Below, piece after piece: positions 1 to 34,161 of a stretch of DNA of 64,000 bases. This stretch comes from Escherichia phage AV112. The translations under genes and the position numbers were made by a program. The stretch lies in sequence record OR352942.1; one strand, 5' to 3'. Under the pieces are notes generated by a model. It had not been told where the DNA came from, made no database searches, and worked only from the letters and a program-made list of their open reading frames with translations. How positions within the stretch are numbered: position 1 is the stretch's first letter; the number at the start of each line of letters is the position of its first letter.

Positions 1-1101
1 TTCACCTGTAATAACTTTTTTGATGAAGTGTGCCCTAGCAAAAGCCAGTTTAAATGCTTTTTCAGATTCAAGGATTTTGTTGTCAATACGTTTCTGAACG
101 TAAGTCTTACGGACTTCAACAAAATCTTTGATTAAGTCCACTACGTTATCGTAGACAGCTAATTTACCCTTTTCATTAATCACTGTGATGTTTTGTGAAC
201 GACGTTCGATGAGACTAAAATCTTTCATGATTTTTTCATGACGTAGCTCTTCATCATCAGGAAGCGAGTACTCTTTACGGAACTTCACCTTAAACCCAAA
301 GCCGTGTTCACCGCAATCATCTTCCCATGAGATTAGACCTTTGTCTTCCAACGGGTCAAGAACCTTACTCACATACGTTTCACGGTCGAATTTATATGGG
401 ATTTCAGTTATCTGCATTTGAGTGCGAGATGTGAACTTATATGTTCCGTGAATCTCATAACGCCCATCAACTTCATGTACTTCACCACGGAATTCCGGAA
501 ATTCAACTTTTGGCTTAGTGACATTTTTACCTTGAAGAGCTTGTAATACAGCCTTTTTGACTGATTTAAAACTATGAGGCAGAATATTTGTTGCGTAACC
601 GGTTGCAATACCAGAGACGCCATTCAAAAGAACTGTCGGAATAATAGGAAGATAGAATTTTGGTGGAATGTGTTCTTTATCTTCATGAGCCGGAGCATAT
701 TCAGTATCTTTATATACGTTATAGAAATTTTTACTTACACGAGCAAAAATATAACGAGATGCTGCAGCTTTTTGGACTGTTCGAGAACCAAAGTTGCCTT
801 GGCCATCTAACAGTGGATAGTTGTTGTTCCATGTGTTAGCCATCAATGCACCTGCATCTTGTGCAGAAGATTCACCATGGTGATAACCTAAATCTGCAAC
901 ACCGCCTGCAATTGACGCAAGTTTATGAAATTTTTCTTTATTACCACGAGCCAAATCTAACGCACGATGAACCACAAAACGTTGAACCGGCTTAAATCCA
1001 TCAATCATGTTTGGGATTGCACGGTTTTCAACGGTGTACATCGCATATGCTAAGGCTTCGTTATCAATAATACTTTTTAGATTACGAGAATTCAATTGCA
1101 T
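1..1101 (-). CDS. 52: DNA topoisomerase II medium subunit (GyrA-like), partial; C-terminus lies beyond the window start
   Basis: Minus-strand ORF with ATG at 1099-1101; N-terminus MQLNSRNLKSIIDNEALAYAMYTVENRAIPNMIDGFKPVQR is the GyrA/ParC-type region and matches T4 gp52 as recalled. Confidence 0.9.
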   Translation of the reverse strand, partial: MQLNSRNLKSIIDNEALAYAMYTVENRAIPNMIDGFKPVQRFVVHRALDLARGNKEKFHKLASIAGGVADLGYHHGESSAQDAGALMANTWNNNYPLLDGQGNFGSRTVQKAAASRYIFARVSKNFYNVYKDTEYAPAHEDKEHIPPKFYLPIIPTVLLNGVSGIATGYATNILPHSFKSVKKAVLQALQGKNVTKPKVEFPEFRGEVHEVDGRYEIHGTYKFTSRTQMQITEIPYKFDRETYVSKVLDPLEDKGLISWEDDCGEHGFGFKVKFRKEYSLPDDEELRHEKIMKDFSLIERRSQNITVINEKGKLAVYDNVVDLIKDFVEVRKTYVQKRIDNKILESEKAFKLAFARAHFIKKVITGE

Positions 1102-1105
1102 ATTT

Positions 1106-1246
1106 TCACCATATTAATGAACGAATAACCATTATAACATCTGAAATGAAAAGCACTACTTGGATTAGCCCAAACATCACACCGTAGTACAGAACCGTAA
1201 GCAACAACAAGAGCCCGAAGGCTCCTGCTAAGATTTTCTTAATCAT
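1106..1246 (-). CDS. small hydrophobic membrane peptide (46 aa), below ORF-track cutoff
   Basis: Hand translation MIKKILAGAFGLLLLLTVLYYGVMFGLIQVVLFISDVIMVIRSLIW; ATGA-type overlap with the next small ORF. Confidence 0.3.
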   Translation of the reverse strand: MIKKILAGAFGLLLLLTVLYYGVMFGLIQVVLFISDVIMVIRSLIW

Positions 1247-1392
1247 TGCTCGCCTTTTAATACGTTAAGAAGAGCTAAGACCGCTAAGGTACCTTGTGAC
1301 ACAGCCTGTTGAAATACTGTTGTTTCGCCTGTAACTAAAGTGTTAACGAATAAAAACGACCAACACAGCAATGCAATAATCCATGCTACCAT
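1243..1392 (-). CDS. small hydrophobic membrane peptide (49 aa), below ORF-track cutoff
   Basis: Hand translation MVAWIIALLCWSFLFVNTLVTGETTVFQQAVSQGTLAVLALLNVLKGEQ; stop overlaps downstream ATG. Confidence 0.3.
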   Translation of the reverse strand: MVAWIIALLCWSFLFVNTLVTGETTVFQQAVSQGTLAVLALLNVLKGEQ

Positions 1393-1404
1393 TTTAATTA
1401 CCTC

Positions 1405-1437
1405 AAAAATAAATTAAAGGCCTAGCTTAATAGGCCC
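1405..1437 (-). terminator. rho-independent terminator-like hairpin after the ndd-like gene
   Basis: Minus strand reads GGGCCTATTAAGCTAGGCC followed by TTTAATTTATTTTT. Confidence 0.45.
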
Positions 1438-1444
1438 GTATAAA

Positions 1445-1891
1445 TTAGTAACTCTGCAGAATGAATTTGAAATTATCGGCCAGAAGACGGTTCATTTCAG
1501 TGAGTGTTTGATATTCTGATGTATGATTACGAGTGAATACCAGAGCCAATTGTCCTTTACCATAACCAGTAGTCAGGGGTTTCATGTTCTTAGCTGCAAC
1601 AAAGATTACATCGTATTCAATATTGTTAGTGCCCATAGTACGGGCTAGTTGCGAACGGCCTTGTCGAATGTGAGAAAGAATTGCATCCAACCCTTGTTTA
1701 GAACGTTGGCGTCCTACAAAGAATCGTGCTGCTACTTGTCGCCAATCAGATGAACCTTTAACAAAGAAGTAAAAACCTTCACGAGAACGAAACTCTTTAG
1801 AAACTTCAGAACCGTATTCGCCATTACGAACTACTGCAACAACTTCACCACCAACTGCCAGAAGGTCTTTACGAGTTAAATATTTGGACAT
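1445..1891 (-). CDS. ndd: Ndd-like protein (nucleoid disruption), 148 aa
   Basis: Length and C-terminal motif [38 protein letters not shown] match my recollection of T4 Ndd; position near rIIB is syntenic. Confidence 0.5.
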
Positions 1892-1924
1892 GCTAATTTC
1901 CTCAATTAATTAATGTTTTTGTAA

Positions 1925-1964
1925 TCCATGAGAGCATTATACTCTGCTCTCAAGAGTTTGTACA
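1925..1964 (-). promoter_or_regulatory. PeSL-like early promoter/stem-loop cassette
   Basis: Minus strand TTGTAC-N18-TATAAT with 8-bp inverted repeat TGAGAGCA/TGCTCTCA flanking the -10; same 38-bp unit recurs at 47231-47268. Confidence 0.5.
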
Positions 1965-1967
1965 ATT

Positions 1968-2168
1968 TTATTCGGTTATATCAGAACGTTCAAAAAGCTC
2001 TTCAACAGTTAAACATTCGGTGTCATCCTCAATAAAGAATCGGGTCCAACACGTTGGGGCGATGCAGTTATGAGTTTGCCCGGCTATAGAAGCTACACGA
2101 ATAAGCTGCTGACCATTATTCAGGACAAATTTTTCACCAATTTCAACATCTTTAAAAAGCTTAGCCAT
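1968..2168 (-). CDS. hypothetical protein (66 aa)
   Basis: ORF between two PeSL-like cassettes; no recognisable motif. Confidence 0.4.
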   Translation of the reverse strand: MAKLFKDVEIGEKFVLNNGQQLIRVASIAGQTHNCIAPTCWTRFFIEDDTECLTVEELFERSDITE

Positions 2169-2226
2169 TTTGTATTCCTCATGTTTTGATAGGACTACTA
2201 TACCATAATCCTACCTTGATGTAAAC
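2169..2226 (-). promoter_or_regulatory. PeSL-like early promoter/stem-loop cassette
   Basis: Minus strand GTTTAC-N18-TATAGT, inverted repeat TAGGA/TCCTA, GAGG Shine-Dalgarno before the ATG. Confidence 0.5.
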
Positions 2227-2418
2227 AATTAAATTACATTAAAATATGTTAAAGCCAACCATGTTCCGGTGAACGAACATGCGATGTAAAAACCTGTATC
2301 ACAAATTGTTCTTAGTACAATAATAAGTGCATTTTTCATAAGTACCTCAATGCAATTGAAAATATTATACAAATCATAGGGATACTAAGCAACCATATTC
2401 CGATCCACATTTTAGAGC

Positions 2419-2682
2419 TCATATCTCAACTTCCGCGAGTTCCATATATCCTTTGTTGATAACCTCTTTAAGGTCTTTAGAAAGAATAACACTAAAATGG
2501 TTGTTCATATGTCCATTAACCAGACGAGTTATTTCGGCTTCAGATGACATATAAGGCACGTCTGAGTCCCAATGAGATAGACCCAAATGGGTATAAATCA
2601 TCCCTTCGTCATCTGCAGTGTTGTACATTGAAACAAATTCGCCTGTTACTTTATGTTTTGCATAGAAAAATTTAAATTTCAT
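2419..2682 (-). CDS. hypothetical protein (87 aa)
   Basis: ORF directly downstream of a PeSL-like cassette. Confidence 0.4.
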   Translation of the reverse strand: MKFKFFYAKHKVTGEFVSMYNTADDEGMIYTHLGLSHWDSDVPYMSSEAEITRLVNGHMNNHFSVILSKDLKEVINKGYMELAEVEI

Positions 2683-2738
2683 GATGTTATCCTCTTTTAG
2701 ATAGGACTACTATATCATAGTCCTACTTAGTTGTAAAC
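2683..2738 (-). promoter_or_regulatory. PeSL-like early promoter/stem-loop cassette
   Basis: Minus strand GTTTAC-N18-TATAGT; perfect 8-bp inverted repeat TAGGACTA/TAGTCCTA. Confidence 0.5.
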
Positions 2739-2750
2739 ACTTTTATGAAA

Positions 2751-3371
2751 TTAAAGTTGAAGATACCACCCGTTGTAGTTGCTCTTGCGGACGATTTTCT
2801 TTAGATCTTCATGGTCTCCCACGAACTTTATAGAATAAGAGAAGACGTCAGGTGAGGTTTCTTTGACATCTAATATAATAATGCAATCTGCGACTCGATG
2901 GTTCAAGAAAGGCCCTATATTGATTCCATTACCACCCGGATAATCACCACTGTATCCTGTGGTAACAGAAATCCATTTAGAATCTATCTGGTGTGTCTTG
3001 ACTTCTACACGAATTCCACAATACTTGGGATGGGCTAACACGTCCCATGCATACGTGTACGGGTCTTCTACGTCTTCAATACCTTTATTAACATATCCGT
3101 CTAGCCAATTTGCTACTACATACTCTGCAAAGACCGCAACCTTACAACGTCGAACTACATCTTCTTTGTTTTGGTCAGGATTTTGGCTCAGGGAATACCG
3201 AGCAGTGTCAGCAATCTTCACCTTCATTTCACTAGTCAAAAACTCATTCGACAGGATAAATGTCGGAAGATTCTTCAGTCTCAACAGTCCCAAGTTCGTC
3301 TTTACCATAGATACCTCTGATGTGTAGTTCGCCAAAATAAATGCGGTCACCTTCTTCAAGATATTCTGCAT
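2751..3371 (-). CDS. hypothetical protein; true start probably internal (ATG at 3227, about 159 aa) because the first ATG overlaps the upstream ORF by about 128 nt
   Basis: ORF-track ORF; sits where T4 has denB but I see no diagnostic motif. Confidence 0.4.
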   Translation of the reverse strand: MQNILKKVTAFILANYTSEVSMVKTNLGLLRLKNLPTFILSNEFLTSEMKVKIADTARYSLSQNPDQNKEDVVRRCKVAVFAEYVVANWLDGYVNKGIEDVEDPYTYAWDVLAHPKYCGIRVEVKTHQIDSKWISVTTGYSGDYPGGNGINIGPFLNHRVADCIIILDVKETSPDVFSYSIKFVGDHEDLKKIVRKSNYNGWYLQL

Positions 3372-3531
3372 CTACCGGTGGGATTTCAATAACAACTTCG
3401 TCGCATTCTAACCAGCCGTAGTGTGCATCACCAGGATGTTTTACCAATTTAGCGCAATAAACTGATTTACACTTATGATGACCACGAAGATTAGCAATTT
3501 TGGATTCTGATACGTCAAATGGATGAATCAT
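3244..3531 (-). CDS. hypothetical Cys/His-containing protein (about 95 aa)
   Basis: ATG at 3531 with AGGGG Shine-Dalgarno immediately after the rIIB terminator; sequence MIHPFDVSESKIANLRGHHKCKSVYCAKL. Confidence 0.4.
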   Translation of the reverse strand: MIHPFDVSESKIANLRGHHKCKSVYCAKLVKHPGDAHYGWLECDEVVIEIPPVDAEYLEEGDRIYFGELHIRGIYGKDELGTVETEESSDIYPVE

Positions 3532-3545
3532 AATTACCCCTAAAG

Positions 3546-3570
3546 AAAAAAAGGGGACCAAAGTCCCCAA
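3546..3570 (-). terminator. rho-independent terminator downstream of rIIB
   Basis: Minus strand GGGGAC-tttg-GTCCCC followed by TTTTTTT. Confidence 0.6.
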
Positions 3571-3573
3571 TTA

Positions 3574-4521
3574 TTATTCTGCAAATAATTCAGTAACGTC
3601 TGAAATTACTTCATAACGACAAGTACGCATCTTAGCATCACCATAGTCAACTGGGATGGACACAACATCACGTGGATGAACTTTAACCTTAACAACTTTA
3701 TCTGAGCTAGAACCAAAGTAACGAATATATGATTTAGCACAAACATGTAGACCACGGGAACAAGTTTGTGTATCGTCATCGTTAACACGAGTACGAGGCA
3801 TTGAAACAACTTTACCAGGCGAGTTATCAAATGTGCCGCTATAGCAATCTAAATAGTCTTTACGAACTACTTTCCATGCATAGAAATGCCCATCTTCAGT
3901 GATTTCAATATCGTTTGCAACCAAGAAGTCGAATAAACGTTGTACAGCTTTTTCGCTTGGGTTTTCTAACAGGTTTTCAAGGAATGGCAGATAGAATTTA
4001 AAGTCTTCGCCTTTTTCCATGGAATCAATAATACGGTTAACCAGTCCTGAACGAATTTCTATACCTTGATAAAATAAACTACCACCTTCAATAGTAACAT
4101 TACCGTCAACAAACTTACTAATAGCTTTCTTGATGTTAATAAGTTCGACAGCTTTACTAAGGTTTCCTGCGACCAAATTAGCTTTAATTTCTTCAAAATT
4201 TGCATGACTTGATGGGGTCGCATTGTATGCTACGCGTCCTTCAATAATTGAAATAAATTTAGATGACGCGTTCCATACGATTTCTGGACGATGACCGCCG
4301 ATAATAGGTTCATCATTTTCTGGAACTTCTTCGATTACATAAGAGGCATCGTTTGCTTCAGGGACAACGCCTTCTGCTTTAAAATTCTTAACAATCTTAC
4401 GAAGAGTATCTGTTGAAATGTCGAAGTAATCGGCAATTTCTTTACGAGTCCATTTGCCTGATTCAACCAGGCCATAAGCTTCTAACTGTTCTTCTTGGGA
4501 CAAGCATTTAATATTGTACAT
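3574..4521 (-). CDS. rIIB: rIIB protein (315 aa)
   Basis: Length and N-terminus MYNIKCL resemble T4 rIIB; immediately downstream of rIIA as in T4. Confidence 0.7.
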   Translation of the reverse strand: MYNIKCLSQEEQLEAYGLVESGKWTRKEIADYFDISTDTLRKIVKNFKAEGVVPEANDASYVIEEVPENDEPIIGGHRPEIVWNASSKFISIIEGRVAYNATPSSHANFEEIKANLVAGNLSKAVELINIKKAISKFVDGNVTIEGGSLFYQGIEIRSGLVNRIIDSMEKGEDFKFYLPFLENLLENPSEKAVQRLFDFLVANDIEITEDGHFYAWKVVRKDYLDCYSGTFDNSPGKVVSMPRTRVNDDDTQTCSRGLHVCAKSYIRYFGSSSDKVVKVKVHPRDVVSIPVDYGDAKMRTCRYEVISDVTELFAE

Positions 4522-4530
4522 AATGTTTCC

Positions 4531-6744
4531 TTATTTGGCCGCTTCCACGGCCTTCATGAATTTAACGATTTGAGCGACTTGTTCTTTAGAAAGAGTACCA
4601 CGTCGTCCCATGTAGTCTGACACAATATGATAATTGGTTTCGAATTCAATAACCATTTTATCATCATTATCGTAAGCATTATCTTTAAGCTTATCGAAAA
4701 TTTTAGCACACAATTCTAACTTCTTATTCAGTTCTGTATTAGTAGCACCTGCGAATCGATTCCATCCCCAACGATTATTTACTGTTGAGAGTTTTGCAAA
4801 ATCTTTACTGATTTCTTTGTTTTTAGAGCTAAAATACTTACTAAGGAAGTTAAGCTCTTCATTACGAGTAATATGATTCAAATAAGGCTGTGCTCTACGA
4901 CTTGGTGATACATACTCATCATAATCCACTTTATCGATTAGCGTAATATAGTCATTAATTGATTTTTCGAACAAGCATTCTACTTCACCAAGTTTACGAA
5001 CTTTCTTAGCAATCTGTGGACGAACTACAGTGAACTCTTTAATACCTGACAAATCAGCAATACGGGTCAAGAAATTGGAGTCATAGTTCAACCAACCTTT
5101 ATCTGCGTCAAGACATTCAGCATTAGAACGATTACGAACTATAGCATAACCTTGGATTTTATCAGCTTCACTCGCTGGAATAAAGAGATCTTCTGATACC
5201 CAAACATCGTTTTCATTCTTAAAGAACCGATGAGCACTTGGGGATTTAGGACGAGGCCCATTAGAACGAGTCTTGACTTCAATCCATGGCTTAACGATTT
5301 GTAAAAGCTCTGAAGTCTTGTACATGTTAATGTTGTCGCCATCAAAGATAACTTTAAGGCGTTCCAGAAGTTTCATTGCATCTTCGTCTGTAGGGTCAAC
5401 GAATAGTACGCTTTTACCAAAACCGCGTGGAACTTTACCGGTTAATTTAACCTCGTCTTTAGACATTTCAATTGAATTAAGAGCTCGCATTAATGGAACA
5501 CGTCCCTTAACGTCGTCAATAACAATTTCAACGTTTTTAATGTTAATACCAATCAGACTGTTAATTGAAATAGTTGCAGATGAGCTACCACTTTCACGAA
5601 TACGACGAAGACGAGGGTCTTCAATGATATCGTATACGACGCCGAGATTACACCATTCAGGTCCCATTTTAAAACGTTTGTACAACTCTGAATAAGTTAG
5701 TTGTTCTTTAGAGTATTTCAGTGATTCAATATTAGACCCAGCCTTTTCCATGTATTTACGAGCAGTATAGCCAAGAGAATCAATTTCACGGAACACATGA
5801 CGCGGGTATTTACAATCAATCCATTTCTTAGAATCTTCAGCGAACAATTTAGCATCGATTTCTGCAACGCGTTTATGGATATTTGCTACTGTACGTTTAT
5901 CAAATGACAATGCTTCACGAGACGGGGCTACATCTAGTTCACCCATAGGGAATTTAATATAAGCTGTAGTGCATCGCGTCATCATCCATGTTTGTTCTTT
6001 AATAACACTTCCGATTGGATATACAATACCACCATAAACAGCCATGATATTACCACGTTCACCCCATGGAGCTTCCTTGGCTAAATAAACATCGTCGAAT
6101 TCCGGGAAGTATTTGATATCTTTAACACCACGAACTTCTGCAATATCACCGAGAGGACGCATAACATATGCAATTTCAGATGCGAACTTTTCAAAATCTT
6201 CTGGGTTAACCGGTACAACTACTTCTACACCAGTACGATCATCAGGACCCATCTTATCTACGAAGGTTGGCTTAATCTGTGGACCACTGTCATCTTGATA
6301 AATTACATAACCACGAACTTCACCGTTGTGATAAGACGTAAGGTTAAACGTATCGGTATATGCTAGTGGAGCTTTAGAGCCGAGACCGAATCCACCAATG
6401 AAATCGTTACTCGATGTTTTAGTTGAAGCAAAATATGAGTTATAGATTCCTGGCTCTTCGTCATTACCTCGAATGGTGAAATCACTCATACCAGGACCAA
6501 AGTCTCGAACTACAAAACGTGGGTCTAAACGACCTGGGGCCTGAACAATAAACTTATCAGTGCAACCATTAAGAATTTGACCATCGATACAGTTTGTGAT
6601 TAATTCACGTACACAAGCCAATTCTTTGTTTGTATAAAGGTCATTAGACAAAATCTTATAAACTTTGCTATTGCCTTGAATAGTAAATGCTGTGCTCTTA
6701 CCGCCTGAACCAATAATCGTTTCTTTAGCCGTTTCAATAATCAT
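4531..6744 (-). CDS. rIIA: rIIA protein (737 aa) with N-terminal GHKL-type ATPase fold
   Basis: GHKL-like motifs ELITNCIDG, VRDFGPGM and GGFGLGSKA; size close to T4 rIIA; synteny with rIIB and 39. Confidence 0.8.
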   Translation of the reverse strand: MIIETAKETIIGSGGKSTAFTIQGNSKVYKILSNDLYTNKELACVRELITNCIDGQILNGCTDKFIVQAPGRLDPRFVVRDFGPGMSDFTIRGNDEEPGIYNSYFASTKTSSNDFIGGFGLGSKAPLAYTDTFNLTSYHNGEVRGYVIYQDDSGPQIKPTFVDKMGPDDRTGVEVVVPVNPEDFEKFASEIAYVMRPLGDIAEVRGVKDIKYFPEFDDVYLAKEAPWGERGNIMAVYGGIVYPIGSVIKEQTWMMTRCTTAYIKFPMGELDVAPSREALSFDKRTVANIHKRVAEIDAKLFAEDSKKWIDCKYPRHVFREIDSLGYTARKYMEKAGSNIESLKYSKEQLTYSELYKRFKMGPEWCNLGVVYDIIEDPRLRRIRESGSSSATISINSLIGINIKNVEIVIDDVKGRVPLMRALNSIEMSKDEVKLTGKVPRGFGKSVLFVDPTDEDAMKLLERLKVIFDGDNINMYKTSELLQIVKPWIEVKTRSNGPRPKSPSAHRFFKNENDVWVSEDLFIPASEADKIQGYAIVRNRSNAECLDADKGWLNYDSNFLTRIADLSGIKEFTVVRPQIAKKVRKLGEVECLFEKSINDYITLIDKVDYDEYVSPSRRAQPYLNHITRNEELNFLSKYFSSKNKEISKDFAKLSTVNNRWGWNRFAGATNTELNKKLELCAKIFDKLKDNAYDNDDKMVIEFETNYHIVSDYMGRRGTLSKEQVAQIVKFMKAVEAAK

Positions 6745-6756
6745 ATTTTTCTCTCA

Positions 6757-6957
6757 TCACAAGTTACGTTTAAAAATTTCTGCTACTTCAAGAAGTTCTT
6801 CTTTAGTAGCTGTATCGGTTTGTATTTTATATCGAATTTCTTTAAAGCGTTCTTTAAAGGACTCTGCTGACTCGATATCAAAAAATCTTTGGATAAGCCG
6901 GAATTCCCGGAGCACCGCTTTATCAAAAAGTTCCAAGTCCACGTTATATGTTCTCAT
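6757..6957 (-). CDS. hypothetical small protein (66 aa), rIIA.1 position
   Basis: ORF upstream of rIIA. Confidence 0.4.
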   Translation of the reverse strand: MRTYNVDLELFDKAVLREFRLIQRFFDIESAESFKERFKEIRYKIQTDTATKEELLEVAEIFKRNL

Positions 6958-7049
6958 AATATTCTCTTCAGTAGATTCCTAGGGCACTATTACTAAAGAC
7001 CATATAATCTATCATCTTATGTGTAATAGTGCCTCAGGCGATTCAGGAT

Positions 7050-8150
7050 TTACGCTGTGAAGATTTTATCCCACATCGCAACAACTGCATCTCGGTTATA
7101 CTTTTTCCATACTGCTTCAGCACGTTTAACTCGAGCTTCGTATGTGTCAGTGAATTCTAATACAGCTTTTGTGTAAAGCGCAACTACTTCTTTCTTAGGA
7201 GTAGAGGAATCAATTTCTACACGCACAGTATCTGGGTCGTATTCGAATGTCGCATGAGGATAATCCTTAAAAACTAACTGGATTACAGGGACACCTTTAG
7301 AGATGGCTTCAATAGAACTATTCTCTACTGTACCTGTGTCAGGACACGTATTAATAAGTGCTTTAGCTGTTTTAAGACGTTCCATGATTTCACTGTGTGG
7401 AGCATCAATAATAACAGGATATTTAGCTGGTGGTGCCCATTTACTAGGACAGTATCCTACACCATTTTCGCCTAGTGCTTTAATTGCTTCAAGAGCAACA
7501 TCGGTGCGGCGCATCTTAGTGTCATAACGTTGTGCACTAATAATCAGATCAGTCGCCGGAAGAACTTCAGGTTTCTCATTCAAACAAATAACCGGGTAAT
7601 CTTCGGCTTCAAACAACGGATTTGCTCGCCAATAATCATAATCAATTTTGTCAGTCAGAGCTGAAGTCATATGGCAATATTTACGTTCAAATTCACGGAA
7701 GGCTTTAGTAGGAGCATAACTCTTACCACCGTTCTTATGAATTTGAATAGTCTGGTCCCAAATTTGAACAATGCCACGAGATACCGGTTCAAATGGTGTT
7801 GCCATAAAATTCTTATGAACTTTAGAGAGACCTGCGTCTTTAATTGCCTGAACGGTTAGTTTAGTCGGTTCCATAGTAACAACAAAATCGTATTCATGGA
7901 TGCCGGCTAGTTCAACAATCTTACGAGCCATAGTATAACTCATACCTAGACTGAATTTAGTCAGATGACCAACAGGATGGTGTGTAACTTTCCAGTCACC
8001 AAACGTGTCATTATCAAAGCCGATATAATCAATATCAGCACCAATAGAAACTAAATATTTCAACACATTTAAATGTACTGCTTCAAGGCCACCTTGTACA
8101 CGGTCAGGATTAAATGGGACTGCACGAGATGGGATAAACATAACTTTCAT
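7050..8150 (-). CDS. putative GT-B glycosyltransferase (366 aa), candidate DNA sugar transferase
   Basis: N-terminus MKVMFIPSRAVPFNPDRVQGGLEAVHLNVLKYL resembles the GT4-family start; lies between rIIA and 39. Confidence 0.55.
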   Translation of the reverse strand: MKVMFIPSRAVPFNPDRVQGGLEAVHLNVLKYLVSIGADIDYIGFDNDTFGDWKVTHHPVGHLTKFSLGMSYTMARKIVELAGIHEYDFVVTMEPTKLTVQAIKDAGLSKVHKNFMATPFEPVSRGIVQIWDQTIQIHKNGGKSYAPTKAFREFERKYCHMTSALTDKIDYDYWRANPLFEAEDYPVICLNEKPEVLPATDLIISAQRYDTKMRRTDVALEAIKALGENGVGYCPSKWAPPAKYPVIIDAPHSEIMERLKTAKALINTCPDTGTVENSSIEAISKGVPVIQLVFKDYPHATFEYDPDTVRVEIDSSTPKKEVVALYTKAVLEFTDTYEARVKRAEAVWKKYNRDAVVAMWDKIFTA

Positions 8151-8192
8151 AATTAAGCCTTATTAAAATTAAAATGAAACTCCCGAAGGAGC

Positions 8193-10010
8193 TTAGGACA
8201 TCCATTCTTTACGAAGTTCTGAATCGTCACCCAACAACATTTCAAAGAGTTCTTTCCAATTTTCAGGAAGTTTAACTACGTCGTACACAGGGTTCTGAAT
8301 CATTTCACGATATTCTGACTTTTCAAGGGAGCCTAATCCCTTGATGTATCGAATACTATGCTTAGGAAGTGTATCTTTAGCTTCTTCATACTCAGCTACA
8401 GTATAAAACCATTTTTGAGTTTTGCCAATTTGTGCAATAATTACAGGCGTTTTAACAAAGCGAATACGTCCTTGTTCAAACAATTCAGGCCAATTACTAA
8501 AGAAAGCAAGCAAAGCCGGATAAATACTTCCAAGACCATCATGATCGGCATCGGTCATAATTGCAATATTACGATAGTTCGTATTCTCTGCCTTTTCACC
8601 AAGAATAAGACCTGTGATAGCACAGATATCAAAGAGCTCTTTGTTCTTCATCATATCGGCATATGACATACCCCAGCTATTCATCACCTTACCACGTAAT
8701 GGGAATCCGCCGTGTAGTTCACGGTCACGAACATCAATGAGATAACCAATTGCCGAATCACCTTCTGTTAAAAACAATGTCGTATCTGCATCTTTACCAC
8801 ATTGGTTAGCTTTAATATGCTTATGAACCTTAGCTTTAGTTGCCTTTTTAGCTGCTTTAGTTTCTGCAGCCTTTTCTGCCGCCAATTTACGAGCTAATGC
8901 TGCTTCAACAATAGGCATAATCAAGGCTTCGTTTTTAAGAAGTGCCTGAGCAATTTTCTTAGCATCTAATTGGATATGATTACGAATATCACCATACGTT
9001 GACGTTAAACGTTCTTTAGTCTGAGAATCAAAACGCATGTTGCTCATGTCTCTAATAAACATCAACATTGTGAGGCATTCTTTAACACGAGCTTTAGTGA
9101 CTTCAATACCCTTATATTTCTTTTTAATGCCAGGCAAAAGATGTTCGCAAATATCATCCATTACACATTCAACATGATGACCACCATTTTTAGTATGGAT
9201 GTTATTCACATAAGTTAAATGACGGAAGCCATCTGGTGATGTTGTGAATGCTATAGAGACTTTATCATTTTCTTGAATGATGTTATCTTCACCAAATTGT
9301 TTAGCAAATCGTTTAAAATTACCATCAACCTTTTTACCATTAAATGTGAACTTGATATCAGGATAAACGACTGCCAATGTTTGAAGACGGTCTAAAGTAA
9401 TATCTAAATAAATTTGAGATAAATTATGCTCTTCAAATGAAGAGAAATCAGGAGTGAAGATTACTTTAGTGCCTTTACCTTTAGATTTCTTAGAAGACCA
9501 TGATTTGTTTTCCATTCCGTTTGAACAGTTAACAGTGATTTCATTTTCGCCATCTGACGTGATGCCTGTAAACAACGTAGAGAAGATATTAGTTAAACTA
9601 CTCCCGACGCCGTTCATACCACCAGTCTTGCGTTCAGAGTCGTCACCAAAGTTACCGCCAGCCTTTGGAATAGTCCAGGCTGCTACAGGCCCAGGAATCT
9701 GTTCACCATTTTGGTCGGTGACCATTGCTTGAGGAATACCACGTCCGTTATCTTCCACTGAGACTTGATTATTTTTAATTTGCACATCAATTTTATTTGC
9801 AAACTTAAATGATGTACGAATAGCTTCATCAACCGAGTTGTCAATAATCTCATCGATTAATTTAACCAGACCAGGAACATATTCAACTTGTTGATATTTA
9901 CCAAACAAAAAACGCTCGTGGGCTTCTTTGGCCGAAGAACCAATATACATGCCACTACGTTTCTTAATATGTTCTACATCTGACAATACCTTAATTTCAT
10001 TTTTAATCAT
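8193..10010 (-). CDS. 39: DNA topoisomerase II large subunit (GyrB-like ATPase), unsplit 605-aa form
   Basis: GyrB-type N-terminus with motifs IDEIIDNSVDEA and EDNGRGIP plus a Toprim-like C-terminal half; no separate gene 60. Confidence 0.9.
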   Translation of the reverse strand: MIKNEIKVLSDVEHIKKRSGMYIGSSAKEAHERFLFGKYQQVEYVPGLVKLIDEIIDNSVDEAIRTSFKFANKIDVQIKNNQVSVEDNGRGIPQAMVTDQNGEQIPGPVAAWTIPKAGGNFGDDSERKTGGMNGVGSSLTNIFSTLFTGITSDGENEITVNCSNGMENKSWSSKKSKGKGTKVIFTPDFSSFEEHNLSQIYLDITLDRLQTLAVVYPDIKFTFNGKKVDGNFKRFAKQFGEDNIIQENDKVSIAFTTSPDGFRHLTYVNNIHTKNGGHHVECVMDDICEHLLPGIKKKYKGIEVTKARVKECLTMLMFIRDMSNMRFDSQTKERLTSTYGDIRNHIQLDAKKIAQALLKNEALIMPIVEAALARKLAAEKAAETKAAKKATKAKVHKHIKANQCGKDADTTLFLTEGDSAIGYLIDVRDRELHGGFPLRGKVMNSWGMSYADMMKNKELFDICAITGLILGEKAENTNYRNIAIMTDADHDGLGSIYPALLAFFSNWPELFEQGRIRFVKTPVIIAQIGKTQKWFYTVAEYEEAKDTLPKHSIRYIKGLGSLEKSEYREMIQNPVYDVVKLPENWKELFEMLLGDDSELRKEWMS

Positions 10011-10032
10011 GTTGTCTCCTCGTTATGAAGGT

Positions 10033-10060
10033 ATTCTATCATCCGAAATCTAAAGCAAAA
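10033..10060 (-). promoter_or_regulatory. MotA-dependent middle promoter for gene 39
   Basis: Minus strand tttTGCTTTA (MotA box) - 12 nt - TAGAAT; the MotA box directly abuts the upstream terminator U-run. Confidence 0.55.
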
Positions 10061-10075
10061 AGGGCCGAAGCCCTT
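10055..10075 (-). terminator. UUCG-tetraloop terminator hairpin
   Basis: Minus strand AGGGC-ttcg-GCCCT followed by TTTTT. Confidence 0.55.
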
Positions 10076-10499
10076 ATTTAAATTTAATTTTCTGAAGTGC
10101 ATCAATTGCAGCCAAACGCCCTTGTTCACTTTTAACTGTAATGACCACATCGCCTGATACGATCACCGAACCATCAACAAATTCTATAGAGCCTTTTTTG
10201 AAATCGACAGCTGTATCTGGTTCCGGAACTTCTTCAAAGAATTTAAATTCTGCACCATAAATCAGAATATCACCTTGCATACTATGAATAGTTCGGCCAT
10301 AATCGCCTACGGCTTCTACAGCAATCACCGAAACGCCGTAACCAATCATCTCTTCCACAATAAAATCTTTGGACAATAAAGTAGTATGCAGATTAGTATT
10401 AAGACGTTTACCAGTCGTATTAAGCATTCTCAAGAAATTATCTTCTTGACCTTTGATAATACGATATTTCTTACCAACTTCAAAACCTTTAAAAGCCAT
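10074..10499 (-). CDS. hypothetical protein (141 aa); possible goF-like by position and length
   Basis: ORF immediately upstream of gene 39; no motif recognised. Confidence 0.4.
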   Translation of the reverse strand: MAFKGFEVGKKYRIIKGQEDNFLRMLNTTGKRLNTNLHTTLLSKDFIVEEMIGYGVSVIAVEAVGDYGRTIHSMQGDILIYGAEFKFFEEVPEPDTAVDFKKGSIEFVDGSVIVSGDVVITVKSEQGRLAAIDALQKIKFK

Positions 10500-28382: not shown

Positions 28383-28399
28383 AGGCTCTTAACGAGCCC
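28383..28399 (-). terminator. terminator-like hairpin after the P-loop kinase gene
   Basis: Minus strand GGGCTC-gttaa-GAGCC followed by a T-rich run. Confidence 0.4.
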
Positions 28400-28937
28400 A
28401 TTTGATAATTTCTGTAATCAAATTATTACGTTCGCTTGCATTAAATCCTATAACTTTGTTAGCACCATCATGATTAAGTAATTGATACGTTTGGATTTTG
28501 TTATGAATTGCAAACTCTTCAAAATATGAAATGACTGTATTAAAACCGAATGAAGACAAAGTAATAAGGTCGTCTTCAAAACTTTCAGTCATTTCGTTAC
28601 GTGTTAAAATAATTGTGAACACATCATGGTTTTGGCAAAGACGAACATAATCCTGTTCATAAACGTCAAGAACCGAGTCCACATCTTGTCGAATACGTCC
28701 ATAAACCCAGTTACTAATATATCCACGGTCTAACAGATAAATCTTAGTAGGGTCTAAATAATTCAACATCGTTTCGAAACAGCCAACTTCATTTCGAGAT
28801 TTAACATCGAAACGTCCATCAACTGTTCGTTTAGGGAAATCAATCTTTACATATCTTTCACTAATTTCCATTATGTCATTAATGAAAGTTGTTTTACCAG
28901 CATTATCCGGGCCATCTACTAAAATAATTTTAGCCAT
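28389..28937 (-). CDS. P-loop nucleoside/nucleotide kinase (thymidylate-kinase-like), 182 aa
   Basis: Walker A GPDNAGKTT near the N-terminus and LLDRGYIS (DRY-like) motif. Confidence 0.5.
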   Translation of the reverse strand: MAKIILVDGPDNAGKTTFINDIMEISERYVKIDFPKRTVDGRFDVKSRNEVGCFETMLNYLDPTKIYLLDRGYISNWVYGRIRQDVDSVLDVYEQDYVRLCQNHDVFTIILTRNEMTESFEDDLITLSSFGFNTVISYFEEFAIHNKIQTYQLLNHDGANKVIGFNASERNNLITEIIKWAR

Positions 28938-28938
28938 T

Positions 28939-29838
28939 TTATTCCTCGATTACGACATCTTCATATTTAGGTATATTATACGGTGAAGAAATTAAAGCAT
29001 TAAAGTAGATGAACTCACCAAGACCTGGATGGAATACTTCTTCAGGATTTTCGAAATATTGAATCTTCGGTCTTCCTTTAAGAATTTGATAGTACTCAGT
29101 TTTAGTTGGTTTAAAAATTCGAATCAGTGCTTCTTCAGGATACTTATTTCTGTCGAAGCTACTATTTGGATCGGTTATATAAAGCGGTTGACCTAATTGA
29201 ATTGCACATTCAACCACTTGTTCAAAACGATAACACGGGTCACTAATTCGAAATGGATGAAAAATACCATCTAGATGAATAGGAGCCAAATCACCTACAA
29301 GACGCTGCATGATGGAAGGACGTATAACTTTCTGGGTTACGATAATCTTATTACCATCTGCACCTGCGTTAACCAGCACTTCTTTTTGACGTTCATTCAA
29401 CACAGTAGTTTGAAGTGAACGATTAACCGACAACATGTCGGTTTTTAAGAATTCGTCAATGTAAAAACGTGGTTTATTAGGGTCTGCAGTGATATTGAAA
29501 TTGAATTCTACATCAAAAGCGCCGTCATATCCAGTGATATCTGTGATTAGAAAATCACAATCATAATAAGCAATTAATGAATCAACCACAAATTCATTTT
29601 CAGACCAGAAATATTTACGAGTGTTATACGCGTTATCTTTATACCATAATGGAACAAACTTAAATTCTGGGAAAAGACGTTCGCATTCTTTAATATCAGA
29701 TGCATTACGTGGATATGTAATCACATCACCCGGATTAGCACGGTGCAAATGAAGTTGGAAGTTGCCATCCTTAAGGATAGCATACTGTCCAGTTTCATAA
29801 GACCGCATACTCAAGATAGGTACGCGGAAAATAGCCAT
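28939..29838 (-). CDS. hypothetical protein (299 aa) occupying the T4 beta-glucosyltransferase position
   Basis: ORF between uvsX and 42; no similarity to T4 beta-gt that I can recognise. Confidence 0.45.
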   Translation of the reverse strand: MAIFRVPILSMRSYETGQYAILKDGNFQLHLHRANPGDVITYPRNASDIKECERLFPEFKFVPLWYKDNAYNTRKYFWSENEFVVDSLIAYYDCDFLITDITGYDGAFDVEFNFNITADPNKPRFYIDEFLKTDMLSVNRSLQTTVLNERQKEVLVNAGADGNKIIVTQKVIRPSIMQRLVGDLAPIHLDGIFHPFRISDPCYRFEQVVECAIQLGQPLYITDPNSSFDRNKYPEEALIRIFKPTKTEYYQILKGRPKIQYFENPEEVFHPGLGEFIYFNALISSPYNIPKYEDVVIEE

Positions 29839-30554
29839 TAGTCAAGAAATCCTTTAACATAATCAAAATCACGTTCAAACACATGGGCACTTACCATGGT
29901 ATGAGTATAATCACCAACTTCTACACCACATTCGTTAGCGATATAATGAAGTAATTTTCCTTGGAGATAAAAATCCAACTGCATAACAACAGCACAGTTC
30001 TGAGAACGCATATGACAGTGGGTATAAAGCTTACCATCACGAATATAATAAGTCACTGAGTCGGTACATGGATATTCAAGTGTTTCGTCTGAATCAAGCA
30101 AAGCCTGATCAGAACTTTCTAGAATTTGGAACACAACTCTTCGAGAGTTAGGTTTTTCTTTAAGTTCTTTTAGAAGAGTTGGTAACTGGGCCGCAATGCG
30201 AGGACCATAGAAAGTGTTGAAGTTCGCAGGCAAAGCATCTGATTTTGGTTTAGAAATAAATTTAGCGACGTTAGGATATGCCTTAAATGCTTCTTCTGCA
30301 TCAGTACCACCAGAAATCATAAATTTCCAGAAATCTTCAGCATATTCATAAGAGATGCGATTAATACGTGGGTCGGTCATTTTGAATGATGAAGGGGTAT
30401 CAACAACTACTGTCATAGACCCAATTTCATTACAACGTCCAATACGAGAATCAGTTACGAATTCCGGGTTTTCTAAAATTTCACGATTGACGGCTTTAAA
30501 TGCGGATTGAAAATCTGCGGCTTTAATATATTTCATTGTGTTATGTTTTCCCAT
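29838..30554 (-). CDS. 42: dCMP hydroxymethylase (thymidylate-synthase fold), 238 aa
   Basis: Motifs SRRVVFQI and CTDSVTYYIRDGKLYTHCHMRSQN parallel T4 gp42 SRRGIMIY and CTNTVQYLIRD...NMRSND as recalled. Confidence 0.75.
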   Translation of the reverse strand: MGKHNTMKYIKAADFQSAFKAVNREILENPEFVTDSRIGRCNEIGSMTVVVDTPSSFKMTDPRINRISYEYAEDFWKFMISGGTDAEEAFKAYPNVAKFISKPKSDALPANFNTFYGPRIAAQLPTLLKELKEKPNSRRVVFQILESSDQALLDSDETLEYPCTDSVTYYIRDGKLYTHCHMRSQNCAVVMQLDFYLQGKLLHYIANECGVEVGDYTHTMVSAHVFERDFDYVKGFLD

Positions 30555-30833: not shown

Positions 30834-31994
30834 TCATTCTGGGTACCTCAAAGCGTCATCAGAGTTAGTTATATCAATAATAGATATAGAGTTTTCCGAT
30901 AACCCATTTTTAGATAACTGACGTTTATAATATCTTTCACAATATGTACACGTCGTCCCACAGATTTCATTAGCACAATCGAAATCTGGATGTTTGAACC
31001 ACCTTTTTTCTAAAAAGCCATCTAACAAAGAGGTTTCAATATTTACCGTATGTGAAAACTCAGTCTCATTTTCAAGAGTGAAAATGGTCTCTAAAGGCTT
31101 CCACAATTCCAACAAATTACCTTCAAATTTTTCAGAAGCATAAGCTTCAAGAACTTTCAAAATGTAGTCTGTGCTACCTGTACGTCCTGAAACTTTGAAT
31201 TGAGTGATACCAATATCATTATAAAGTTTCAAATCTTGAGGACGAACAAAACGAGTTCTCAACCAGTTAAATGGATCTGTATCACGAGCTTTAATACAGT
31301 GCTGCATTGGATATCCATTTAAGGATTTGGCATCATCTACTGTAACATCAGTGCTATGGAAAATATAGCAAGAGTCACGATAACTACAATGTGTTGTATA
31401 CCCTTTACCAGCATTAGAACAGAACTCATTTACAAGAACTTCAAATATTATATTGTTCTTATTACAAAACTCTGCTGCACGCTTCAGGAAAGAAACTGAA
31501 CGGTTCTTATGAATTCCACAGCAGACCTTTTTGATATTATATTGGTCATGCAAGTATTTGATTTGAGTTACAGCATCGACATGTAGAATTGTTGAAACTT
31601 CAATCTCAATGTCTTTATTGACTTCACGAACAATTTCCATAACAACAGGGTTAGCGATAGTAATACGCCAAACGCCTATTGACCAAAGATACTGAACATA
31701 ATCCTGAATAGCTTTCTTCTTCCACTCAACTAGTTCTCTTTTTGAACCAGGATTTATCGTGTTGAGTGTATAGTTAAAGCAAATACCTAATTCGTTACAA
31801 CGTTTAACGTAATCTTCTAACATCTTTTTGTCAACGTCAGGAAGCCTAAAATCAGGTCTGGCTGCTACAAAAGCCATTTCTCTTGTAGAGCCGTATACTT
31901 CGTTTATCAAGCTATTAGGATAAGTTTTATTGAGCTCTACGATTTTATCAAGAAGAGCTAAATCAAAATTCGTTCCGATTTTAAAGGTATTCAT
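30834..31994 (-). CDS. U32-peptidase-family-like protein with C-terminal Cys cluster (386 aa)
   Basis: N-terminal region VYGSTREMAFVAARPDF resembles the U32 start; central NEFCSNAGKGYTTHCSYRDSC resembles the U32 signature; C-terminal CANEICGTTCTYC. Confidence 0.35.
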   Translation of the reverse strand: MNTFKIGTNFDLALLDKIVELNKTYPNSLINEVYGSTREMAFVAARPDFRLPDVDKKMLEDYVKRCNELGICFNYTLNTINPGSKRELVEWKKKAIQDYVQYLWSIGVWRITIANPVVMEIVREVNKDIEIEVSTILHVDAVTQIKYLHDQYNIKKVCCGIHKNRSVSFLKRAAEFCNKNNIIFEVLVNEFCSNAGKGYTTHCSYRDSCYIFHSTDVTVDDAKSLNGYPMQHCIKARDTDPFNWLRTRFVRPQDLKLYNDIGITQFKVSGRTGSTDYILKVLEAYASEKFEGNLLELWKPLETIFTLENETEFSHTVNIETSLLDGFLEKRWFKHPDFDCANEICGTTCTYCERYYKRQLSKNGLSENSISIIDITNSDDALRYPE

Positions 31995-32048: not shown

Positions 32049-32450
32049 TTATAGATTCGGTTTATATGATTTAAATGTTTCGAATTCGCCTTTATTCATA
32101 AGAGCTTTGAATTCGTCAGGACGCATAGCTTTGTCGTCGATAATCCAATCATATACTGGTTTATGTGTTAGCAAATTATGGTACTTCAATCCAATGTTTG
32201 CCAAGTTCTGAATCAGACTTGGGAGAATGTCAATTGCTATACGACCAGGACCGACTGACTTCATACCACGAGCAGTGTAAAGCGTTATGGTATGCCCTGC
32301 ATCATACAGGGCATTAATGGCAGACACCATTTCGACGTCTGGTTTGAAGTTCACGTAATCACGATTGTTATTCCACTCTGTTATACAATCATCGACATCA
32401 AAACAAAGATTAAGCATGTTTTTTACACGGGGCATTAGATTCGTTCCCAT
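32049..32450 (-). CDS. HAD-superfamily phosphatase-like protein (133 aa)
   Basis: Motif I-like FDVDDCIT, motif II-like TLYTARG, motif III-like DWIIDDK. Confidence 0.45.
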   Translation of the reverse strand: MGTNLMPRVKNMLNLCFDVDDCITEWNNNRDYVNFKPDVEMVSAINALYDAGHTITLYTARGMKSVGPGRIAIDILPSLIQNLANIGLKYHNLLTHKPVYDWIIDDKAMRPDEFKALMNKGEFETFKSYKPNL

Positions 32451-34120
32451 TGATGAGTGATATCGCCACCGATTGGACGATAGGAAACACCAGTTTCTTT
32501 ATCAGTTAGTACCCATTTACCAGGATTTTTTGTAATCAGAGTAGCCGTTACAGGTTCTGCTACGTCATAACTAATAGAGCCGTCCTGAAGTACACGGCCC
32601 ATGTTACGTAATTGCTTAGTCAGAAGTTCCATACCTTTATAATATGCGGCTACCGCTTTAAGTGGATTATTCTTGAAATAACCACCTAATGCAATCCAGA
32701 TAATTGCCACTGCCAAATGATGATACTCGTTAAACGAACTCATCTTTCCATATTTGTAAACTAATGGATTGATGTTAATAGTCACATTACAAGTTGTTTC
32801 ATCAATAGTAAACTGTCCCCAGGTCGGATTAGCGTTGAATTCATCATACCCTGAAACAGCATAAAGCACTTTAGCTTCGTCATACAATTTTGGTCCGTAA
32901 ATCTTGGTTTCGCCAAAATATCCACGAGGGTCGATAAACTTGACTTCGCCGTTATCAGTAATCATAGTATTACTGAAGTTCGGGTCACCATGAATAACAG
33001 AGTACTGTCCCTGAGAACGGTTATGATAACGAATAAGGTGTTCTAAAGCTTGTTTCAACATTGGCTTCAGACGCCCAATCTTAGTGTAGTTCACATGTGT
33101 GATTTTACCAAATGAATCAATCAGTGGTTGAATACTTTCACAACGATCAATAACTTTCGTATAGAATTCTTTAGTGAAATCACGACGAACAGTTTCAGGA
33201 CTTACAAAATAAGTGTCTGTGCTGAATTTCAGTGCGTCTAAAATTGCATCAACAATTTGTGGACGAGCAAGACTCGATTTGGATTTAATATATTCAAATG
33301 CTGGCTTACCTTTAATGCGTTCCATTTCAAAGTTATTTTCATTAACAGAAACTAACTGAGGAACTGAATCTGATTTCACTTTAAGATACCATGAAATCTC
33401 ATCTTTCTGAAGAGCTCGGCCCTGTTCGGTTAATGCGAATTTAGTTACAGTTTCTTCACCAATTTCAACGGCATTAAAACTACGATTAAGTTCACGAACT
33501 TCATGAGCTTTTTCAAGTTTAGGCATATCACCTAAATCAATTAGATTCATAAGCTCTGATTTATTGAATGCACTGCCGTAAAGGAATTCTACGAAATCAC
33601 GTCCTTTGCAGTATTCATGAATTTCCTCATCAGTAGAACCCATATAGAATTCCCAGTCTTTGAACTGATAAATTCCTACAACATTACCACCTGTTGAACC
33701 TACGTTAGTGATATTTTCACCGTCGAAATTATATCGACATTCGTCGCCCTTAACATAGATTGCGTTAACATTCCAAGACCACGAACCAAAATCAGGAATA
33801 ATATCACACCAGTTAACAATTACATTATGGCCGTCTAAATCTTTGTGCAATTTAGCAAGAGCATAAGCAGAACCATATGCTTCATCAACTGTACGAATAG
33901 TCACATTGAACCCTTCTTGCTCACAATAAGCTCGAACAGTTTCAGCAAATTTTGAATGAACTACTACAATAATTTCATCTGCGCCAAGGTCAGAATAAAT
34001 TGTATACAAATTGCTCAGAATAGTGTCTTGTTTATAGTTAACAAGCACCTTAGGAATATGATGCGTTATTGGATACAAACGAGTTGCCAGTCCAGCACCA
34101 AGAATAACAGCTTTTTTCAT
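32435..34120 (-). CDS. bifunctional sugar-1-phosphate nucleotidyltransferase / sugar kinase (561 aa)
   Basis: N-terminus MKKAVILGAGLATRL (G-x-G-T-R nucleotidyltransferase motif); C-terminal kinase motifs HGDPNFSN and FIDPRG. Confidence 0.6.
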   Translation of the reverse strand: MKKAVILGAGLATRLYPITHHIPKVLVNYKQDTILSNLYTIYSDLGADEIIVVVHSKFAETVRAYCEQEGFNVTIRTVDEAYGSAYALAKLHKDLDGHNVIVNWCDIIPDFGSWSWNVNAIYVKGDECRYNFDGENITNVGSTGGNVVGIYQFKDWEFYMGSTDEEIHEYCKGRDFVEFLYGSAFNKSELMNLIDLGDMPKLEKAHEVRELNRSFNAVEIGEETVTKFALTEQGRALQKDEISWYLKVKSDSVPQLVSVNENNFEMERIKGKPAFEYIKSKSSLARPQIVDAILDALKFSTDTYFVSPETVRRDFTKEFYTKVIDRCESIQPLIDSFGKITHVNYTKIGRLKPMLKQALEHLIRYHNRSQGQYSVIHGDPNFSNTMITDNGEVKFIDPRGYFGETKIYGPKLYDEAKVLYAVSGYDEFNANPTWGQFTIDETTCNVTININPLVYKYGKMSSFNEYHHLAVAIIWIALGGYFKNNPLKAVAAYYKGMELLTKQLRNMGRVLQDGSISYDVAEPVTATLITKNPGKWVLTDKETGVSYRPIGGDITHQWERI

Positions 34121-34161
34121 GTTGTGGTCCTCATTGGTAAGTAGGAGTATTGTACACTATT

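Follow-up and report, generated by a model that had tools for sequence, protein, structure and literature searches.

A probable chain-extending DNA arabinosyltransferase beside the unsplit gene 39 of an RB69-like phage

In the 64,000-nucleotide stretch of Escherichia phage AV112 DNA analysed here (OR352942.1; the whole stretch is hereafter referred to as the window), the minus-strand gene at 7050-8150 encodes a 366-amino acid (aa) GT-B glycosyltransferase that is orthologous to RB69 ORF003c/gp3 and to the phage HY126 glycosyltransferase (PDB 9IQZ/9IR0). This soluble enzyme is likely to transfer arabinofuranose from UDP-arabinofuranose (UDP-Araf) onto the first arabinose of 5-hydroxycytosine (5hoC) DNA, thereby adding a second sugar, and we hold with high confidence the narrower claim that it is a UDP-sugar-dependent DNA arabinosyltransferase of the 5hoC pathway. 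For this enzyme, we infer the UDP-Araf donor, the DNA acceptor and the second-sugar role from the literature together with the phyletic pattern. The gene is already known as the second DNA sugar-transferase of RB69-like phages, with a putative role; an arabinosyltransferase annotation has been in use for BASEL phages since 2021, and nothing in Escherichia phage AV113 materially differs from published descriptions. What remains of value here is re-annotation, along with the modest observation that the location of the chain-extending transferase varies by lineage. Many restriction enzymes, DNA glycosylases and some CRISPR systems are blocked by arabinosylated 5hoC, a phage DNA hypermodification clarified in 2025-2026, and the set of defences that a phage evades seems to depend on how many sugars each base carries. 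The second sugar of RB69-like phages, a group with several phage-therapy candidates, is probably determined by the 366-aa gene.

A conserved gene between rIIA.1 and an unsplit gene 39

An open reading frame (ORF) of 366 codons with an ATG start fills positions 7050-8150 of the minus strand exactly and is preceded by an AAGG ribosome-binding site 8 nt upstream of the ATG. Its product matches PHROG 8302 ("unknown function") over residues 1-366 of 366 (E = 2.5e-222), is kept at 96-100% protein identity in approximately 155 Escherichia/Shigella phage records, and belongs to a family found at about 42% identity in 55 Acinetobacter phage records. These data clearly mark the ORF as a genuine gene. 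At the nucleotide level, the region 6700-10100 is 100% identical to that of AV113 (OR352943.1; Mosigvirus, Tevenvirinae, from Danish wastewater) and 98-99% identical to approximately 145 further RB69-like phages, HY126 among them. The AV113 record annotates the transferase gene only as "hypothetical protein", a label that can be replaced on the basis of the crystallised, near-identical orthologue.

Downstream of the transferase gene lie rIIA.1 (66 aa; 6757-6957, minus strand; Pfam PF24210 T4_RIIA1, E = 2.1e-30) and rIIA (737 aa; 4531-6744, minus strand; PHROG 612, E = 4e-226). Between the stop codon of the transferase gene and the start of rIIA.1, a 92-nt spacer holds a stable minus-strand hairpin at 6978-7038, formed by an inverted repeat (6978-6993/7023-7038) with an RNA minimum free energy of -28.5 kcal/mol (z = -4.24), and the RB69 spacer is identical at 90 of the 92 nt. 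A weak terminator-like hairpin was also seen 3' of gene 39 (8177-8194). A sigma-70 promoter scan of 6600-10400 returned 8 sites against 12.2 expected from shuffles, and scanning the whole window for tRNAs and Rfam families yielded no matches.

On the other side, gene 39 (8193-10010, minus strand) encodes an unsplit, 605-aa large subunit of DNA topoisomerase II with GyrB, HATPase and Toprim domains (Pfam) and a match to PHROG 543. BLASTP aligned residues 1-474 of its product with residues 1-473 of T4 gp39 (79% identity) and residues 473-605 with residues 27-159 of T4 gp60 (87% identity); the gene is thus one continuous ORF that is colinear with T4 gp39 plus gp60, without the mobA/60.1 insertion or the bypass element. 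This colinearity bears out an earlier reading of the same DNA made from the sequence alone (the sequence-only reading), which had described gene 39 as unsplit and had placed gene 60 and mobA in the corresponding T4 interval. T4 indeed carries 60, 60.1 and mobA there, whereas the interval here carries the 366-aa transferase instead. The same reading had proposed a comparison with RB69-type genomes, and RB69 proved to have the transferase between rIIA.1 and an unsplit gene 39, in an identical layout (rIIA, rIIA.1, ORF003c, gene 39) and annotated as unsplit in the RB69 record. RB69 and JS98 share the same unsplit gene 39 of 605-606 aa, which is an already known RB69-type trait. ORF003c/gp3 itself has the same length as our protein and is identical at 361 of 366 residues (98.6%; five differences), and the RB69 genome has the same arabinosylation cluster 21 kb away; we found no substantive difference between the two genes.

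A GT-B fold visible through structure

The 366-aa protein matched no Pfam family even at E ≤ 1, Glycos_transf_1 and Glyco_trans_4 included, and its relatives showed only sub-threshold Pfam matches, to GT4-conflict or Glyco_trans_1_4. Word-indexed homologue searches recovered 5 and then 10 clusters, and an exhaustive profile search recovered 11 family proteins from among 1.84 billion cluster representatives, with the nearest outgroup at E = 4.6e-4. Neither the word-indexed nor the exhaustive profile search gave a deep alignment or a link to bacterial glycosyltransferases (GTs). The family is therefore very small, and nearly all of its members are T4-like phage sequences.

A single-sequence AlphaFold model (pLDDT 38) was replaced by a model built from a 10-sequence family alignment (pLDDT 90.8, pTM 0.86), in which a cleft separates two Rossmann-like beta/alpha/beta domains. 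The best Foldseek matches in the PDB were 9IR0 ("phage HY126 glycosyltransferase with UDP") and its apo form 9IQZ (TM 0.95-0.96), both released on 2025-07-16 and attributed to He et al. (Nat Chem Biol 2026) through PMC13326640. They were followed by GT4-type GT-B enzymes at E values of 1e-10 to 1e-12 (tetrahydrobiopterin glucosyltransferase, BshA, PimA and MshA), with WaaG matching somewhat below BshA, PimA and MshA. The crystallised HY126 chain is identical to our protein at 365 of 366 residues, the one substitution being Ser314 here and Phe in the crystal, and we found no functional difference between the two proteins. Because the Foldseek neighbours of the model are GT4 enzymes and a crystallised GT is identical at all but one residue, the predicted GT-B fold is confirmed, and, given this residue identity, the protein effectively has an experimentally determined structure. 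The same identity to the UDP-complexed 9IR0 argues, indirectly, that the protein would bind a nucleotide-diphospho-sugar donor. The sequence-only reading had called the protein a GT-B, GT4-like transferase, which the AlphaFold model, Foldseek and the near-identity to 9IQZ/9IR0 uphold; the Pfam Glycos_transf_1 match it had suggested looking for did not materialise, and the protein is GT4-like by structure only.

Residues G20, G21, R208, R214, E276 and E281 do not vary within the family, and the E-x7-E motif usual in GT4 enzymes is shortened here to E276-x4-E281, reading E276-NSSI-E281 in the sequence. Thomas et al. (PMC6024577) aligned Gly-20, an Arg numbered 207 and Glu-281 with residues of the T4 alpha-glucosyltransferase that contact the nucleotide sugar (phosphate/ribose). 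Identity to the retaining GT4 enzymes of the GT-B fold is 10-15% (BshA, 3MBO; PimA, 2GEJ; MshA, 3C4Q; WaaG; sucrose-phosphate synthase, 6KIH), and these enzymes use a lipid or small-molecule acceptor, whereas DNA is the presumed acceptor of the 366-aa protein. We also note that the close structural relatives are all retaining GT4 enzymes, and that Lee et al. (PMC13326640) label gp3 a beta-transferase.

A hypermodification cluster and sugar module 21-27 kb away

The genome that carries the 366-aa gene also encodes a 5-hydroxy-dCMP synthase and the genes of a UDP-arabinofuranose pathway, all on the minus strand. A P-loop nucleotide-kinase-like ORF (182 aa; 28389-28937), equivalent to RB69 gp45, gave a faint Pfam match (Thymidylate_kin, E = 0.14), and its function follows Table 1 of PMC13326640. 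By coordinate, it is followed by the candidate first, base-proximal arabinosyltransferase (299 aa; 28939-29838), equivalent to RB69 gp46:47 and 99% identical to RB69 ORF046c plus ORF047c; this protein has no Pfam match and no BLASTP similarity to the 366-aa protein. Next come the putative 5-hydroxy-dCMP synthase, a thymidylate synthase-family protein (ThyA homologue; 29838-30554; Pfam Thymidylat_synt; PDB 9IQC/9IR2, E = 6e-162), and, within the cluster, a Peptidase-U32-family ORF (30834-31994; Pfam PF01136, E = 6e-11) equivalent to RB69 gp50 (PMC13326640, Table 1).

The sugar-activation genes, which have these four ORFs directly downstream of them on the minus strand, begin by coordinate with a 133-aa ORF (32049-32450) without a Pfam match, which by position and by PMC13326640 corresponds to RB69 gp51/HY126 AfhF, a putative phosphatase. 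They continue with a 561-aa bifunctional sugar kinase/UDP-sugar pyrophosphorylase (32435-34120), equivalent to RB69 gp52:53/HY126 AfhE (PMC6024577, PMC13326640), in which Pfam placed NTP_transferase at the N-terminus and kinase-like matches at the C-terminus, and end with a SIS-domain arabinose-5-phosphate isomerase (34302-34937; Pfam SIS; PDB 3ETN, 5UQI and 2XHZ, E = 1e-19 to 1e-25) equivalent to RB69 gp55. In the published assignment (PMC13326640), the isomerase, the arabinose-5-phosphate kinase/UDP-arabinose pyrophosphorylase AfhE and the phosphatase AfhF together lead to UDP-D-arabinofuranose, and gp51/AfhF is assigned the conversion of Araf-1,5-P2 to Araf-1-P. The sugar-nucleotide module at 32-35 kb that had been proposed from the sequence does exist, with an isomerase, a nucleotidyltransferase-kinase fusion and a small phosphatase-like ORF. 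From the 366-aa gene it is 20.8 kb to the closest modification-cluster gene (at 28939), and the sugar-activation genes (32049-34937) lie 23.9-26.8 kb away; the separation of about 25 kb given earlier is therefore correct. Of the earlier proposal that the 366-aa gene is the likely transferase for the sugar of this module, the link to the module stands; its place as the sole transferase does not, given the second GT candidate at 28939-29838.

More copies of the 366-aa family go with more arabinoses

We compared the distribution of the two transferase types among phage records. The 299-aa GT had tblastn matches in 348 phage records, including Mosigvirus, Dhakavirus, Klebsiella, Enterobacter, Serratia, Proteus, Yersinia, Shewanella (Thanatos) and Acinetobacter phages. 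The 366-aa family matched only 211 records, with one copy in Mosigvirus and two tandem copies in Acinetobacter phages. Among the records with the 299-aa GT, those from Shewanella, Serratia and Klebsiella phages and from Dhakavirus gave no match to the 366-aa family (tblastn, E ≤ 1e-5). JS98 has the first GT only, and its 588-nt interval between gene 39 and rIIA.1 holds two unrelated small ORFs and no transferase remnant. A candidate exception to this pattern, "Tegunavirus sp. BRC001" (OZ038340.1), has two copies at Acinetobacter-phage identity and is probably a mislabelled Acinetobacter phage.

The literature gives one arabinose per cytosine for Thanatos and LC53, two for RB69, NP, Bas46 and Bas47, and three for DLP3. 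Family copy numbers of 0, 1 and 2 thus track 1, 2 and 3 arabinoses, in a comparison of collection-level tblastn counts with sugar numbers published for a few phages; among these few chemically characterised phages, the family is found only where the DNA carries at least two arabinoses per cytosine. In DLP3, two places match a family protein (P0009), and its gp76/gp77 are the equivalents of Maestro 077/078, which share 56% identity with one another and 41-43% with the 366-aa protein over its full length. Mosigvirus differs from DLP3 in having one copy, outside the cluster, and two sugars, whereas DLP3 has two tandem paralogues in the cluster, both of which were needed for the third sugar (PMC13326640).

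The position of the family varies as well, with at least four locations: the gap that separates the ThyA homologue from the first GT (metagenome contig L008, where stop and start codons overlap), a tandem arrangement within the cluster directly after the kinase gene (Acinetobacter phages, as for Maestro 078 and 077), a site after a DsbA-like gene (contig L007), and the interval between gene 39 and rIIA.1 (Mosigvirus). Tentatively, one might see the 366-aa transferase as a portable add-on, a single gene that brings chain extension to a conserved core cassette for mono-arabinosylation of 5hoC; we give this proposal rather less than even credence. If it is true, gain, loss or duplication of this gene would tune the chain length to one, two or three arabinoses, and such tuning would alter the profile of a phage against host defences.

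A second-sugar role and its alternatives

In the proposed pathway, the ThyA homologue would make 5-hydroxy-dCMP, so that 5-hydroxycytosine replaces cytosine during replication, and the isomerase, the kinase/uridylyltransferase fusion and the phosphatase (32049-34937) would convert ribulose-5-phosphate into UDP-D-arabinofuranose. The 299-aa protein (28939-29838) most likely attaches the first arabinose to the 5-hydroxyl, after which the 366-aa GT-B enzyme would transfer a second Araf onto this first sugar in duplex, replicated phage DNA, with the UDP-sugar held in the cleft between its two Rossmann-like domains (UDP-Araf presumably by the C-terminal domain). The outcome would be di-arabinosyl-5-hydroxycytosine, as in Mosigvirus DNA, which restriction, CRISPR and glycosylase defences would attack less easily.

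This assignment draws on the literature. Thomas et al. 2018 (PMC6024577) predicted RB69 ORF003c to be a GT-B arabinosyltransferase and the best GT candidate in RB69. Lee et al. 2026 (PMC13326640) describe RB69 gp3 as a putative, chain-extending "beta-arabinosyltransferase 2" and gp46:47 as the first transferase, the split in the RB69 record being a sequencing error; PMC13326640 and PMC13390438 likewise treat the 299-aa type as base-proximal and the 366-aa type as chain-extending, in keeping with the placement of these enzymes in the 5hoC pathway in 2025-2026. DLP3 gp76 and gp77, which belong to the same family and pathway and use UDP-Araf on arabinosylated DNA in vitro, together added a third arabinose onto RB69 DNA (PMC13326640). 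In the same work, none of the DLP3 GTs was active on bare 5hoC DNA by itself, and gp76/gp77 worked only as a pair; because the paralogues were active only together, it is an assumption that the lone Mosigvirus copy acts alone. A Bas46 mutant without an arabinosyltransferase ("Aat", one of the two genes) is reportedly viable and sensitised to a defence system.

The 366-aa protein might instead be the first, base-proximal transferase, placing arabinose directly onto the modified cytosine in DNA. We regard this as improbable, although it was the original proposal for RB69 ORF003c in 2018, when that gene was the best GT candidate (Thomas et al., PMC6024577), and BASEL records (Bas47, Bas56-type) annotate a "putative hmC-arabinosyltransferase". 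There is also dispute over what the 299-aa protein does in vitro, its Thanatos homologue having a reported UDP-xylose pyrophosphorylase activity in vitro, and if the 299-aa protein were not a transferase, the phyletic argument for the role of the 366-aa protein would be weaker. However, the mono-arabinosylated Thanatos and LC53-type Serratia phages possess the cluster and the 299-aa protein and lack the 366-aa family at the tblastn threshold given above, the copy number of the family rises with the number of additional sugars, and the Acinetobacter paralogues lengthen an existing sugar chain in vitro (PMC13326640).

A non-DNA target, such as a host envelope glycolipid, LPS or a phage protein, is very improbable for the 366-aa protein. 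Its best non-self structural matches are indeed GT4 enzymes that act on lipids, LPS or small molecules (PimA, WaaG and BshA), and one record annotates a phosphatidylinositol mannosyltransferase. Against this stand the almost exclusive occurrence of the family in T4-like phages, the presence of its genes within the DNA-arabinosylation cluster itself on contig L008 and in Acinetobacter phages, and the action of its paralogues on DNA (PMC13326640).

The acceptor base

Our preferred reading, a chain-extending arabinosyltransferase, supposes 5hoC as the modified base, whereas the sequence-only reading had supposed 5-hydroxymethylcytosine (hmC) DNA. The ThyA homologue is only 25% identical to the T4 dCMP hydroxymethylase gp42, is essentially identical to PDB 9IQC, and reads RSQN (Asn) where T4 gp42 has RSND (Asp), an Asp-to-Asn change that Lee et al. 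regard as the signature of 5-hydroxy-dCMP synthases (PMC13326640). A HY126 homologue of this ThyA-type enzyme has been crystallised with a flavin cofactor. By this marker, the T4-type hmC route is absent: the sole ThyA-family gene examined carries the 5-hydroxy-dCMP synthase signature. LC-MS and NMR of RB69, DLP3 and Mosigvirus NP DNA placed arabinose in ether linkage directly on cytosine C5, without a methylene bridge, and the arabinosyl-hmC assignment of 2018 was later called erroneous. Judged by these residues and relatives, the acceptor base of this phage is predicted to be 5hoC and not hmC, and the hmC part of the sequence-only reading did not hold. That reading would also have given up the glycosyltransferase if it proved unable to glycosylate hmC DNA, and because the acceptor is not hmC, such a failure would wrongly discard a correct assignment. 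That the 366-aa protein glycosylates hmC DNA in the manner of the T4 alpha- or beta-glucosyltransferase, the chemistry that the sequence-only reading had assumed, is hardly credible given the 5-hydroxy-dCMP synthase type of the ThyA homologue, the direct ether linkage in RB69 and NP DNA, and an hhalign comparison with the T4 beta-glucosyltransferase that gave no similarity (probability 0.2%).

The T4 alpha-glucosyltransferase (GT72, 1Y6F) and beta-glucosyltransferase (GT63) have no detectable sequence relationship to the 366-aa protein. They use UDP-Glc as donor and hmC as acceptor, whereas UDP-Araf and arabinosyl-5hoC are predicted here, and their genome location differs. For annotation, the "thymidylate synthase"-type labels in the AV113 record conceal a probable 5-hydroxy-dCMP synthase. 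The codes of the matching entries 9IQC and 9IR2 fall in the same accession range as those of the HY126 transferase.

Genomic position of the transferase family

The genome position of the 366-aa transferase family, to which the GT-B glycosyltransferase of the window belongs, varies among T4-like phages. In the RB69-like Mosigvirus phages, the gene lies 21 kb away from the arabinosylation cluster. A member on one metagenome contig (L008, locus 376-3019) separates the ThyA homologue from the 299-aa gene, another on a second contig (L007, locus 3040-4224) follows a DsbA-like gene, and a tandem pair is located downstream of the kinase in Acinetobacter phage Maestro (locus 5815-10300). In JS98 (NC_010105.1), we also inspected the 588 nt that separate gene 39 from rIIA.1 (2437-3024). 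This stretch carries no annotation, and its minus strand holds two plausible ORFs, one of about 53 aa and one of about 100 aa, both with a GGAG/GAGG-type ribosome-binding site upstream; neither ORF is related to the 366-aa transferase.

Hairpins flanking the transferase gene

The transferase stop and the rIIA.1 start are separated by a 92-nt spacer (6958-7049), which folds on the minus strand into a strong hairpin whose arms lie at 6978-6993 and 7023-7038 (RNA MFE = -28.5 kcal/mol, z = -4.24). As this hairpin (6978-7038) is not followed by a U-run, it does not qualify as a canonical intrinsic terminator. The RB69 spacer is identical at 90 of 92 nt, and one of the two differences disrupts a stem pair. 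On the other side of the transferase gene, a terminator scan flagged a short GC hairpin with a T-rich tail (GCTCC-TTCG-GGAGT; 8177-8194, minus strand). This hairpin directly follows the stop codon of gene 39, lies 27 nt ahead of the transferase start, and may attenuate read-through out of gene 39.

Candidate functions within the arabinosylation cluster

Within the cluster, a peptidase-U32-family ORF (30834-31994, minus strand) has the ThyA homologue on one side and the phosphatase-like ORF on the other. U32-family proteins (RlhA, TrhP) are required for pyrimidines in rRNA and tRNA to be hydroxylated at C5. The only role listed for the phage ORF in PMC13326640 is "sugar or heterocycle reductase?". 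The same study assigned a transferase role to the 299-aa protein (28939-29838, minus strand), the candidate first arabinosyltransferase, for which we detected no match in a Pfam search and found no homologue of solved structure. For its homologue in the Shewanella phage Thanatos, TH1_063, in vitro activity as a UDP-xylose pyrophosphorylase has been reported (PMC12838424), which conflicts with the transferase assignment.

Labels in public records

The only Tegunavirus-labelled record with the 366-aa family was OZ038340.1 ("Tegunavirus sp. BRC001"; 144099-145217). It encodes two copies of the family with identity equal to that of the Acinetobacter phages, and its accession number sits next to those of Acinetobacter phages; the record probably names the wrong organism. 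Gene labels also differed among records, with the transferase (7050-8150) annotated as "hypothetical protein" and rIIA.1 (6757-6957) as "rIIA lysis inhibitor" in the AV113 record OR352943.1, and the transferase gene labelled as phosphatidylinositol mannosyltransferase or DNA alpha-glucosyltransferase in other records.
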